Sequence record: LT907986.1
DNA from: Escherichia phage vB_Eco_SLUR25
Reading direction: 5' to 3' (one strand)
DNA: 58,998 nucleotides
How positions within the stretch are numbered: position 1 is the stretch's first letter; each line of letters begins with the position of its first letter. Shown here one piece after another: positions 4,257 through 16,382 of the stretch. A model generated the notes under the pieces. That model had not been told where the DNA came from, searched no databases, and worked only from the letters and a program-made list of their open reading frames with translations. The translations under genes and the position numbers were made by a program.

Positions 4257-4278
4257 CTTAAATCCTCTAGTGAAAAAG

Positions 4279-4300
4279 AAAGCGCCTCATTGGGCGCTTT
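4279..4300 (-). terminator. rho-independent terminator-like hairpin after gene 4326..5129
   Basis: Stem AAAGCGCC/GGCGCTTT with 6-nt loop; minus-strand reading is followed by a T5 tract. Confidence 0.5.
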
Positions 4301-4325
4301 CATTATAACGTGATATGTTTTGATA

Positions 4326-8698: not shown

Positions 8699-8763
8699 TG
8701 GAATACCTTAGAAAAATAAGCCGTCTTTCGACGGCTTATGGACACTACAGAGGGAGGGTTATC

Positions 8764-11985: not shown

Positions 11986-12026
11986 TGTTTATCCTTAATA
12001 AAAAGGGGTCTGTTGACCCCTTATAG

Positions 12027-12268: not shown

Positions 12269-13060
12269 TTACAGTTTGTCTTTGAACTCTTCGATATATT
12301 GCTCGATCGGATACTGCTTACGCTTGAAACGATCAAACAAGATTTTAGCAGATTCTACGTCTTCGTCGCTCTCTTTACTTGCGCCCGGTGCCATAAAATC
12401 ACGCCATGTAAAACCGTTCAGATTATGCATCTTAGCGATGTGCTTGTTGTAACGGCTTTCCCAGTCCACACGCGGACCTTCCATCTTGCGTAAACCGCGC
12501 CCAAGCACCTGTACATACAAATCTTTCTGACGTTGTACAGCTTCACCATTATAAGGTCCGGTTTTAAACTCAACAACACTACCGTTAAGATCTGCACCAT
12601 CCGCAAAGTTGTGTAGCATAGTTTCAATAACGTCATTCAATGTTGGAACCGTCACTTTGCCCTGGGCAATGCCTGCCAAATAACCGACGTTTTCTTCACC
12701 GTACAACTCGATCAGTTCTTTCTTGGTTGCTTCTGCTTCTTTGTTTGCGGACAAAGCCAACATCTGTTGTTCGAACATGTGTTCCTGTTCCAGGAAGTGA
12801 GCATAGCGCTCTTCGTCTACTTTGCACACAATCCATTTATATTCAACATCCTTGCTGAAGTCCGGATACTGATCTACTTCTACTACTTCCGTAGTAAAGA
12901 ACTTGCCGTTATATTGAATAACAACTGTATCGCCCGGCTGCAATTCGTCACTTTCCAGAGCACGGTAGGTATAAAGACGGCCACCCGCTTCAAACTTAAC
13001 TTTGACAGTTACAACGCCTTTTAACAGAGCATGATAAGCTTTCTGAAATTCTTTACGCAT
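12269..13060 (-). CDS. hypothetical protein
   Basis: 263 aa ORF, no recognised motif. Confidence 0.5.
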   Translation of the reverse strand: MRKEFQKAYHALLKGVVTVKVKFEAGGRLYTYRALESDELQPGDTVVIQYNGKFFTTEVVEVDQYPDFSKDVEYKWIVCKVDEERYAHFLEQEHMFEQQMLALSANKEAEATKKELIELYGEENVGYLAGIAQGKVTVPTLNDVIETMLHNFADGADLNGSVVEFKTGPYNGEAVQRQKDLYVQVLGRGLRKMEGPRVDWESRYNKHIAKMHNLNGFTWRDFMAPGASKESDEDVESAKILFDRFKRKQYPIEQYIEEFKDKL

Positions 13061-14519: not shown

Positions 14520-14987
14520 TTATTGAATTGAACCGCGATCAATTAACCATTGTTTCGCGTGCGCTTTAAAGATAATGCGGTAGTCATCGAGACTAATTTC
14601 CGCGCGGATGGAATCTTTAACTTCATACCACTGCCATTCACCATTACTGAAGACAACCGGATTAAGCGGTAGAACGACCTTCCATCCTTTACGTTCTATT
14701 TTATACATCAGAACTGGATATCTGCCAAGCTCTTTAGCAGATTGGACAGTCTGCTTCCACCATGTGTTTACTTGTGGCGTAGCATGGTTTTTTACTTCAA
14801 CCGCATGGTGGCATGTATTGCTGATATCACAACCACCGACAGCACTTTGATTCTGGTTTCGCTGAGCAATAGGTTTTTCCGGTAACTGCATCCCCAGCTC
14901 TGCGTAGATTTCGGCATAAATTGCATTAAAGAAATCACATACTTCCCGCTCACCGCGTTGGCCTTTAGCGCGAATATTTACTGCCAT
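14520..14987 (-). CDS. PD-(D/E)xK nuclease, Holliday-junction-resolvase-like
   Basis: ATG at 14987 with GGAG RBS; GQRGEREV ... GGCD ... VEVK resembles E/D/ExK arrangement of Hjc-type resolvases. Confidence 0.45.
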   Translation of the reverse strand: MAVNIRAKGQRGEREVCDFFNAIYAEIYAELGMQLPEKPIAQRNQNQSAVGGCDISNTCHHAVEVKNHATPQVNTWWKQTVQSAKELGRYPVLMYKIERKGWKVVLPLNPVVFSNGEWQWYEVKDSIRAEISLDDYRIIFKAHAKQWLIDRGSIQ

Positions 14988-15060
14988 GTTTGTCTCCATA
15001 ACTTTAATGTAAAACACTTCATAAAGAATTTTATATTGAAGTTATGTTGATCGCAAGGAA

Positions 15061-15092
15061 CAAAAAAGCCCAGGCATAAGGATTCCTGGGCT
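15061..15092 (-). terminator. rho-independent terminator (minus strand)
   Basis: Stem AGCCCAGG/CCTGGGCT, 10-nt loop, followed on minus strand by TTTTTG. Confidence 0.55.
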
Positions 15093-15404
15093 CTCTTGAT
15101 TGTCGGATAGCTTACTTTGACTGCCGTCTTCGTCTACCCTGGCCTACTTGTACAGCCTCGCCAAAGGCTGGTGACGGTTTGGTACATCTGGCGCCGTCTC
15201 GTTAAACATCGTTTACATCGTTCAGTAAGTTGCGGGTTTACCCTGTCCGCTCCAGGAAGCCCAGCGAAAGTAGTTGCTGTAAGGAGGTACAGCTACCGCT
15301 TTCAAGGGCTTGAGTTAAGCATCGTTCACTAAGTTAATGTTGTTAAATTGTTAAACCTCGTTAACTGTGGTTATCTTAAAGGATGCAGTCTTGAATGGCA
15401 AGCT

Positions 15405-15722
15405 TCAATTTTGCGCGGTTCCCTTTGCCGCTTTTGGTGCTAAAGTACCATCATTTAACATCAACTCAAAACCTGTTACTTGATCGGTTGGAACAATAGG
15501 GTAATTCATAATAGCCATGTGAATACAATGTCCACCGTCACATTCATCGATGTATTCATTACCCCAATAGTATAAATGCCCATCTCTTCGAATATCCATT
15601 GCCGTTGGGAAATCTACAAGAATTCTTTTAATTTCTTTTCGTCCTTCTTTATGCAGATTAGTTTCAATACGGATAAGCTCCGCATAAATTGCTTCACAGA
15701 TAGTGTTTACAATTCCCATCAT
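15405..15722 (-). CDS. hypothetical protein
   Basis: 105 aa ORF. Confidence 0.45.
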   Translation of the reverse strand: MMGIVNTICEAIYAELIRIETNLHKEGRKEIKRILVDFPTAMDIRRDGHLYYWGNEYIDECDGGHCIHMAIMNYPIVPTDQVTGFELMLNDGTLAPKAAKGTAQN

Positions 15723-16157: not shown

Positions 16158-16382
16158 ATGGTCATGCTGAATAAAGTATATAGCACAATGGGCGCGGATT
16201 ATAAAGTTGTACGTCACCCGCGTACTGGTAAATTTGAAGCATATATCCGTCCAATTGGTGAAAGTTGGATGTATTACGGTACTTATGATGATGCTGAGCA
16301 AGCTTATAAAGAAGCGGAAAGTGCCGCGGAAGCATCCGAAATTATGGCAAGGTACGACGTCGATGATTACTACCTTAACTAA
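16158..16382 (+). CDS. AP2-domain DNA-binding protein, encoded on the opposite strand inside the leftward arm
   Basis: 74 aa; GKFEAYIRPIGESWMYYGTYDDAEQAYKEAESAA matches AP2-like pattern; GGAGGA RBS; followed by strong terminator. Confidence 0.55.
   Translation: MVMLNKVYSTMGADYKVVRHPRTGKFEAYIRPIGESWMYYGTYDDAEQAYKEAESAAEASEIMARYDVDDYYLN

Follow-up and report, generated by a model that had tools for sequence, protein, structure and literature searches.

A conserved non-coding locus of Seuratvirus coliphages that probably specifies a structured RNA with an anti-Shine-Dalgarno loop

What function could be served by a 417 nt gap between coding genes in the leftward replication and nucleotide-metabolism gene block of a virulent coliphage? 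The gap (14988-15404, coding gene to coding gene) lies in the 58,998 bp genome of Escherichia phage vB_Eco_SLUR25 (genus Seuratvirus, Queuovirinae; record LT907986.1), the whole of which is the window analysed here and the reference for all coordinates; its lineage is referred to as the SLUR63 type. An earlier note, made from the letters of the window alone, had proposed that the gap contains a non-coding RNA (ncRNA) or a long 3' untranslated region (UTR). The comparative evidence favours the ncRNA, the stronger of these options, in that covarying helices are combined with a candidate promoter on the 5' side and a terminator on the 3' side; the segment from this terminator through the upstream stop codon spans 343 nt (15062-15404, minus strand). 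We regard it as very probable that the locus specifies a discrete, functional structured RNA, and we favour, with rather more confidence than doubt, the fuller explanation that the gap holds an autonomous gene for an ncRNA of about 305 nt, outside Rfam, with control of translation in trans as its mechanism.

The description of this stretch as non-coding holds, since no open reading frame (ORF) is conserved on either strand among the relatives compared. Six-frame translations of the window phage, Salmonella phage STP-SP5 and VogelGryff have no open frame in common, and the indels between the window phage and STP-SP5 are not multiples of three. A 71-aa plus-strand ORF at 15117..15332, annotated as hypothetical in several GenBank records (e.g. 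KS_A8 and VogelGryff), has its frame broken in STP-SP5, and these comparisons indicate that the annotation is likely to be a mis-annotation. In all 34 sequenced Seuratvirus genomes the gap is either annotated as empty or carries such a spurious antisense ORF.

We infer that base pairing is under selection from an alignment of 14 distinct sequences, dominated by near-identical ones, that was evaluated against a structure of seven helices. In RNA numbering, in which position n corresponds to window position 15369-n, the helices tested were H2 (59-111), a pseudoknot stem (113-116/124-127), H4 (119-122/134-137), H5' (171-175/192-196), H6 (199-204/211-216), H7 (230-235/259-264) and H7b (241-243/248-250). 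Standard pairs occupy 99.6% of the pair cells in the 14 sequences, and the covariance analysis that had been suggested as a check finds double-sided, compensatory changes at 12 pairs, well beyond the controls (3.8±1.4 in column shuffles, with 0/500 reaching the observed number, and 1-2 with slid partners), as is expected of a structured RNA. The sources of compensation are independent, namely STP-SP5 (H2 and H4), sequences L025 and L010 (base of H2), the VogelGryff-type allele (H7) and PLYYY01 (H7b), and Hafnia phage yong3 contributes three further compensatory pairs, in H5' and H6. All of the single-sided changes lead to G-U pairs, which fill 50 of the 672 pair cells and would be C-A if read on the other strand; because these pairs fit only the minus strand, selection acts on this strand, the operon-sense one. 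The folding z-score is -2.39 for the sense strand compared with -1.52 for the antisense strand.

The individual helices differ in the events that they record (coordinates in Table 1). An extended imperfect stem-loop had been placed at about 15257..15320, and is recovered as hairpin H2 at 15258-15310; compensation is seen at six of its pairs, in STP-SP5 and, as a separate event, in L025/L010 (C-G to U-A at the base). H4 has one compensatory C-G to U-A change and is by itself thermodynamically unremarkable. In H5' there is a C-G to G-C compensation in yong3, and its loop is kept throughout the family except for one W position, while H6 shows compensation at two pairs in yong3 and variation to G-U in both STP-SP5 and Greed. 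The H6 loop UUGGCG is complementary to CGCCAG in the H5' loop, making a 6 bp kissing contact possible. Five compensatory pairs in H7 come from the VogelGryff-type allele, in which the whole 3' domain has been exchanged together with an inserted HNH endonuclease gene, and H7b changes from GAC/GUC to GUC/GAC in PLYYY01. Loops are more strictly conserved than stems. The family core that is common with yong3 comprises the terminator, a GAAG...CAAGUAAG motif, the repeats described below, and H5' and H6, the loops of both of which are invariant; H2 and H4 are confined to Seuratvirus, and in their place yong3 has a different hairpin with a loop repeating CCAGAU..ACCAAA (two such loops).

Transcription signals frame the structured region on both sides. 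A rho-independent terminator had been claimed at 15061..15092, and a G+C-rich hairpin with a U-run on the transcribed strand is indeed located at 15062-15092, its absence from the output of the built-in scan being due to its 10 nt loop. Terminators occur in all four lineages: three unrelated hairpin sequences (SLUR63 type, VogelGryff type and yong3) occupy this site, with a U-run after each. On the opposite side, a promoter-like site directly follows the stop codon of the upstream ORF and has a predicted start near 15366. It is kept, with the same position, spacing and key bases, in STP-SP5 (TTGACA-N17-TAATAT) and yong3 (TTGCAA-N17-TAAGAT), such that it is retained in three diverged lineages (SLUR63 type, STP-SP5 and yong3) despite upstream genes that are 45% identical or unrelated. 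The promoter-like sequence TTGCGA-N15-TATAAA that had been noticed after the terminator is present, and can be read more canonically as TTGCGA-N17-TAAAAT. As a single-sequence match this downstream promoter is weak, because matches of such quality occur in the region at chance density (9 found by the scan and 8.7 expected); it is supported because it is conserved in diverged relatives, a TTGC/TTGA -35-like hexamer directly following the terminator in all four lineages, including STP-SP5, the VogelGryff type and yong3. Promoter, terminator and fresh downstream promoter together are, on sequence grounds, the signature of an insulated transcription unit, of which the RNA itself would be the product. 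The candidate promoter of the RNA, the identity of the loop described below with the anti-Shine-Dalgarno sequence, the repeat arrays and five other helices are all new beyond the earlier note.

Table 1. Features of the putative RNA locus and its neighbours (window coordinates; dG, folding free energy)
Feature	Position	Strand	Remarks
Predicted ncRNA, about 305 nt	15062..15366	minus	Non-coding; covariation in seven helices
Candidate sigma-70 promoter of the RNA	15373..15401	minus	TTGCCA (15401-15396), N17, TAAGAT (15378-15373); 9/12 matches
5' array, six direct repeats [G/C/U]U[U/G]AAC	15314..15365	minus	8-10 nt period, about 30% GC
H2, imperfect hairpin, 19 bp	15258..15310	minus	dG -26.4 kcal/mol, z = -5.59; 0/200 shuffles equally stable
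H2 apical loop ACCUCCUUA	15280..15288	minus	Same sequence as the final 9 nt of E. coli 16S rRNA (anti-Shine-Dalgarno tail)
H4, hairpin GCGG/CCGC	15232..15256	minus	Possible H-type pseudoknot CCUG:CAGG; loop motif ACAGGRUAAAC
Variable linker with second array, 2-3 tandem units of GAACGAUGU	15201..15231	minus	
H5', hairpin GACGG/CCGUC	15173..15198	minus	Invariant 16 nt loop CGCCAGAUGUACCAAA
H6, hairpin CAGCCU/AGGCUG	15153..15170	minus	Invariant loop UUGGCG
H7, hairpin GGGUAG/CUAUCC	15105..15139	minus	Encloses H7b GAC-GGCA-GUC; conserved motifs GAAG and CAAAGUAAG
Intrinsic terminator	15062..15093	minus	Stem AGCCCAGG/CCUGGGCU, 8-11 bp, 10 nt loop, U6; dG -17.2 kcal/mol, z = -4.25
Promoter-like site for PDDEXK nuclease and dUTPase genes	15028..15056	minus	TTGCGA (15056-15051), N17, TAAAAT
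Upstream ORF, 105 aa	15405-15722	minus	No assigned function
Downstream gene, annotated 'RusA-like'	14520-14987	minus	Pfam PDDEXK_15; dUTPase gene next
NrS-1-type primase-helicase, 788 aa	16409-18775		About 1 kb upstream of the RNA locus

Conservation in related phages had been named as a further check, and the gap is kept in 34 Seuratvirus records and, distantly, in Hafnia phage yong3. Among the Seuratvirus records of the phage collection, all 34 have the region at 95-100% identity; it is 80% identical in STP-SP5, where the non-coding stretch (about 78-80% nucleotide identity) is conserved to an extent comparable with the flanking protein genes (70-84%). The 105-aa upstream ORF is 45% identical in STP-SP5 and 58% in slur01, and is unrelated in yong3. 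The yong3 homologue (nhmmer E = 4.5e-13) was reached by starting from the neighbouring nuclease protein; other relatives, in which the nuclease is 60-65% identical, have no gap at the corresponding site. Scans of IMG/VR and metagenomes yielded about ten additional contigs, all from close relatives: the IMG/VR pattern scan gave three Seuratvirus contigs and one coding false positive, and the metagenome pattern scan gave seven true contigs and six random ones. The 42 matches of a scan of GTDB genomes were all unrelated, a search of 5,426 E. coli genomes at BLAST level found no match to the RNA region, and nhmmer comparisons with the Nonagvirus, PSTCR4, Vid5, 83AMN and Siara loci did not detect homology. 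A literature search for transcriptome or ncRNA reports on Seuratvirus or Queuovirinae found none.

The surroundings of the element are fluid. Small ORFs around the RNA locus turn over, making this a variable accessory stretch, and the gene after the terminator is, depending on the relative, the nuclease, an HNH endonuclease or a 100-aa ORF. The junction just after the RNA terminator (window about 15020-15060) is an insertion hotspot: homology to the 3' part of the RNA ends at one common point in VogelGryff, Dru_SM1, SA80RD, OddieOddie and SA126VB, and in the two of these five that were examined, VogelGryff and Dru_SM1, there is an HNH homing endonuclease gene just downstream (861-1373 of loci L004 and L005) and the RNA 3' domain is exchanged. 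STP-SP5 and Greed have an extra ORF of about 100 aa at this junction (L002 2641-2943).

The apical loop of H2 provides the most direct indication of what such an RNA might do. Its identity with the 3' end of 16S ribosomal RNA (rRNA) becomes a shared 10-mer (ACCUCCUUAC) in rrnB when the next base of the spacer/precursor is counted. The loop is invariant in 14/14 aligned family members, while the surrounding stem has changed at many positions; its mean probability of being unpaired is 0.6-0.7, and its duplex with UAAGGAGGU has a free energy of -13.2 kcal/mol. This is the accessible, conserved seed expected of a small RNA (sRNA) that occludes Shine-Dalgarno (SD) sequences; of the other expected property, namely identified targets or pairing beyond the SD core, a scan of the phage genome found no instance. 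We denote as AGGAGGAAU an altered form of the H2 loop in which the stem is unchanged.

We therefore propose, given that the natural partners of ACCUCCUUA are SD elements, that the RNA could be a trans-acting agent of ribosome-binding-site occlusion. Host RNA polymerase would transcribe the discrete RNA, perhaps with an additional contribution of read-through from the upstream genes, and the RNA would then act in trans, its ACCUCCUUA loop pairing with the SD sequences of selected host or phage messenger RNAs (mRNAs). Such pairing would compete with the 30S subunit and block initiation. The rest of the RNA would be a scaffold, in which the repeats and the terminator tail might form a protein-binding, stabilising platform.

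These repeats have the overall form [G/C/U]U[U/A/G]AAC and lie in the 5' 55 nt and in the linker at RNA positions 141-168. They constitute the densest T[GTA]AAC cluster of the genome, with 6 and 4 copies in adjacent 120 nt windows compared with a mean of 0.6; the ten UNAAC copies within 240 nt form a cluster that is unique in the genome and is located about 1 kb downstream of the primase-helicase gene. Outside the second array, the sequence GAACGATG does not occur in the genome. Copy number differs among relatives by complete units, STP-SP5 having one unit fewer and Dru_SM1 one 9 nt unit more. In the metagenome contig ERZ1026901 NODE-154 (L023, about 1145-1235) there is an insertion of about 100 nt inside the GAACGAUGU linker, which resembles diverged copies of the H4/pseudoknot module (GGAUAAAC) and of the H5' module (GCGCC..CAAACC).

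Loci at the syntenic position in two more distant phages have a similar organization. Providencia phage PSTCR4 (L013 3361-3840) and Vibrio phage 83AMN (L030 2513-3000) have strongly structured non-coding gaps before the PDDEXK gene (z = -7.55 and -3.26 respectively), in which, as in the window locus, there is a promoter-like site at the start (here TTGCGT-N17-TATATT/TATTAT) and a strong terminator at the end. PSTCR4 shares the GTNAAC repeats, and 83AMN has a hairpin with a CCUCCC loop. They differ from the window locus in having no overall homology detectable by nhmmer and no Rfam match, and their relatives are too few for covariation. In Pantoea phage Vid5 the syntenic slot is occupied by a transfer RNA (tRNA) gene, tRNA-Ser (L014 3697-3784). 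In this phage group, the slot before the PDDEXK gene seems to be favoured by RNA genes.

Several observations weigh against an autonomous RNA that acts by SD occlusion. Only two truly diverged homologues are available, so that several helices rest on one or two events, and the putative pseudoknot stem and kissing contact are invariant and so contribute no covariation. The candidate promoter of the RNA is only a 9/12 match, of a kind no more frequent than chance predicts. Between the upstream ORF and the RNA there is no terminator, and the RNA could therefore be produced mainly as a 3' UTR. As to targets, no antisense match to the RNA of at least 13 nt was found in the phage genome, nor anything beyond chance; the perfect 9 nt SD sequence UAAGGAGGU occurs only once in the genome (52542-52550), with complementarity that does not extend past 9 nt, and this single occurrence precedes a late ORF of 67 aa. 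A loop that copies the rRNA tail would also compete with tens of thousands of ribosomes unless its targets were specific. Finally, yong3 lacks the anti-SD hairpin, and anti-SD pairing is thus not the core function of the family. It is because of this absence in yong3, the lack of extended complementarity to phage targets and the competition with the ribosome pool that we put forward the anti-SD mechanism tentatively, and consider it distinctly less secure than the RNA itself. The ORF that follows the single perfect SD sequence (52556-52759, plus strand), which is unlisted, encodes a Cys-rich product; the rightward late block ends with this gene, and a terminator follows.

The main rival to an RNA acting in trans is an origin role for the repeats, which we judge unlikely. 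The locus would then be a replication origin, or give rise to an origin-associated transcript, with the GTNAAC direct repeats as DNA iterons or priming sites read by the NrS-1/P4-alpha-like primase-helicase or another conserved DNA-binding protein; the origin would be activated, or an R-loop primer supplied, by transcription from the adjacent promoter into the AT-rich repeats, and the hairpins would act on RNA or single-stranded DNA. Direct repeats near an initiator gene are indeed present, in a cluster that has no counterpart elsewhere in the genome, recurs with a near-helical period and varies in copy number by whole units, and PSTCR4 has a syntenic GTNAAC cluster (5 copies in 120 nt compared with a mean of 0.16) that shares the 12-mer AACTTAGTGAAC with the window phage (1/300 shuffles), the remainder not being homologous. 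The element directly follows the primase gene plus one tiny ORF in both PSTCR4 and 83AMN. The primase has an NrS-1-type helix-bundle domain, of a type whose recognition site on template DNA is 5'-GTG(A)-3' (PMC8718748). The primase has no sequence-level match to a known origin-binding domain. An RNase H gene is found in the replication modules of related phages (a PF00075, RNase HI-type match that is weak in yong3; annotated as RNase H in Seurat), and a 263-aa protein with a weak match to the PriA 3'-DNA-binding domain is present at full length in exactly the RNA-positive phages. However, the one-strand G-U compensatory changes, the promoter in three lineages and the terminator in four are predicted by an RNA gene and are not required by an iteron origin; the repeats are all in one orientation, and the cumulative GC skew has its minimum at about 20 kb, where transcription diverges, and not at the RNA locus. 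Moreover, there is no gap in L038-L043, close relatives whose primase is of the same family, which fits an accessory element better than an essential origin. A rather slim chance attaches to the idea that the RNA is a multivalent sponge or decoy, whose UNAAC units and duplicated loop modules titrate a host or phage protein such as an RNA chaperone, a ribosome-associated factor, or a nuclease or toxin recognising the 16S 3' end, the anti-SD loop being a mimic for protein recognition rather than a base-pairing seed. The arrays of variable copy number, the duplication and exchange of modules (two CCAGAU..ACCAAA loops in yong3 and the 100 nt insertion in L023), the absence of an extended antisense target in the phage, and the location in a variable accessory stretch with turnover of neighbouring small ORFs and a post-terminator insertion hotspot are all consistent with it. 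It is nonetheless a purely architectural idea, with no known protein-binding consensus enriched (3 GGA in 305 nt, about as expected, and only short ARN runs) and no co-varying adjacent protein gene.

Two explanations act in cis and are less probable still. Passive operon punctuation, in which a hairpin within a long 3' UTR would serve for stabilisation or RNase III-type processing and transcription would be reset by the terminator and promoter, seems to us very unlikely: a stretch of some 300 nt in which seven helices are under selection, loops do not vary and a promoter of its own is conserved goes far beyond what punctuation needs, RNase III sites have no need for loops stricter than stems, and relatives without the element cope with no gap at all. 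Long imperfect hairpins separate the early genes of phage T7, and H2 resembles them; the upstream ORF is not divided from the element by a terminator, and four similar terminators occur in the leftward block, as punctuation would have it. Least probable of all, we believe, is a cis-acting leader of the nuclease and dUTPase genes, be it a riboswitch, a protein-dependent attenuator or a put-like antiterminator controlling the terminator at 15062. Attenuators and HK022 put have the order promoter, structured RNA, terminator and genes, which is matched here, and a possible H-type pseudoknot is present at 15232-15256; but the downstream genes have a promoter-like site of their own in every lineage, the gene past the terminator differs among relatives (HNH, 100-aa ORF or nuclease), no riboswitch family scores at E up to 10, and the sole competing pairing, of CUGGGCUU in H2 with GAGCCCAG, is lost in STP-SP5, where H2 has changed and the terminator has not. 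A further and quite speculative idea, prompted by the 12-mer UUUAACAAUUUA together with the 16S-tail loop, is that the RNA mimics features of rRNA, with an exposed copy of the 16S 3' tail and a leader containing 12 nt of the rrn boxA region; it could then serve as a decoy and titrate either a defence toxin or a host factor with specificity for the anti-SD end of 16S rRNA, or it could retune the access of mRNAs to ribosomes globally, and it could be one of a wider class of RNAs upstream of the PDDEXK gene in Queuovirinae-like phages.

Other resemblances to known sequences were looked for in the RNA region. Rfam 15 gave no match in the whole window at gathering thresholds, and with an E limit of 10 on 14900-15600 only four chance-level matches, far below threshold; the related loci had none either, and ARAGORN found no tRNA or transfer-messenger RNA in the window. 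The 12-mer UUUAACAAUUUA (15345-15356, minus strand; RNA 14-25) is also present in the E. coli rrnB leader, where it covers boxA in its 3' part and the flank, a match of 12 or longer having a probability of about 0.03 in shuffles. In the rrn/lambda boxA antiterminator (core GCUCUUUAACAA, the NusB-S10 site) the GCUC core corresponds to GAGG in the window phage and AGUC in STP-SP5, and judging by these substitutions the site is probably not a Nus-factor site. A likeness to the type I-E CRISPR repeat at 15235-15252 (minus strand; RNA 117-134), considered as a sign of an RNA anti-CRISPR or solitary repeat unit, is judged to be chance and the repeat hairpin is absent: most family members have AGCGG-ACA-GGAUAAACC, which differs from the 3' end of the E. 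coli repeat, AGCGGGGAUAAACC (the 5' handle of the CRISPR RNA), by a 3 nt insertion (p ~0.015), and the window phage reads GGGUAAACC (p ~0.37). Resemblance to type I-F CRISPR repeats is insignificant or not conserved, and an 11-mer of 16S rRNA positions 812-822 is present in only a few members. A resemblance to the RfaH ops core, GCGGTAGC, was rejected since it is lost in STP-SP5; CsrA GGA sites are not enriched, and the preQ1 riboswitch classes give no match even at E up to 10.

Some features of the neighbourhood deserve mention in their own right. Four strong intrinsic terminators on the minus strand punctuate the leftward early/replication block (4273-4301, 8712-8738, 12000-12020 and 15062-15091), which suggests several transcription units and not a single long operon. 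A 74-aa ORF in antisense orientation directly after the primase-helicase gene (16158-16382, plus strand) has a weak AP2-domain match, and small ORFs of matching position and orientation are present in Seurat, 9g, PSTCR4, Vid5, Kpn2-P2 and yong3; we consider its product a candidate DNA-binding regulator, able perhaps to read the GTNAAC repeats. The 263-aa protein is encoded at 12269-13060 (minus strand) and belongs to phrog_27666. Its full-length homologues are those of the 34 Seuratvirus phages and Hafnia phage yong3, and RNA-negative relatives do not have it at the corresponding position; this co-occurrence with the RNA may be a phylogenetic coincidence. A single-sequence AlphaFold model of the protein was unusable (pLDDT 38), and a sequence search of the PDB was uninformative.

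Seuratviruses serve widely as model coliphages, among them CAjan, Seurat and several phages of the BASEL collection for which E. coli K-12 was the isolation host. With a promoter of its own, a conserved RNA of about 300 nt and several domains would rank among the few large structured ncRNAs of virulent coliphages, and in a genetically tractable system. The identity of its loop with the anti-SD sequence provides a directly testable hypothesis, that of RNA-based translation control or a decoy during infection, and the shared repeat motif and the structured Providencia and Vibrio gaps suggest that a more widespread RNA locus, or an origin, has escaped notice in these phages.

Comparison with characterized systems helps to place the element. 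Short direct repeats near a primase-helicase gene, with structured single strands, are found in phage P4 ori/crr, SaPI ori and RSF1010 oriV (ssi hairpins), and an AT-rich stretch just downstream of a promoter is shared with R-loop origins such as ColE1 RNA II and T4 oriF/oriG; unlike all of these, the phage element has a conserved promoter, a terminator and G-U-tolerant covariation, has neither an inverted iteron set nor a skew signal, and is absent from close relatives with the same primase. Arrays of short single-stranded motifs in variable copy number, with modular gain and loss of hairpins, are reminiscent of CsrB/RsmZ and CrcZ, although the motif is UNAAC and not GGA or AAnAAnAA.

Among RNAs of enterobacterial phages and prophages, lambda OOP, P22 Sar, DicF, AgvB/AsxR of enterohaemorrhagic E. 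coli and the T4 species 1/2 RNAs are mostly 50-150 nt in length, and are cis-antisense RNAs or mimics of host targets. The Seuratvirus RNA would resemble these in being a short independent unit of a phage genome that ends at an intrinsic terminator, and they act on translation or on other RNAs; it differs in its length of about 305 nt, its multiple domains, the absence of an antisense partner of at least 13 nt in the phage and the lack of similarity to the host. RNAIII and RsaE of Staphylococcus aureus, and similar RNAs, are base-pairing sRNAs that present C-rich, anti-SD-like hairpin loops. The phage RNA differs from them in coming from a virulent coliphage, in having no sequence or Rfam relationship to them, and in presenting the full 9 nt 16S tail rather than a UCCC motif, in a single such loop. 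Like them, it is a structured RNA with its own (candidate) promoter and an intrinsic terminator, an SD-complementary apical loop, and stems that covary around a loop that is fixed. A phage-encoded regulatory or structured RNA is a known kind of element, and the family described here is a new one.

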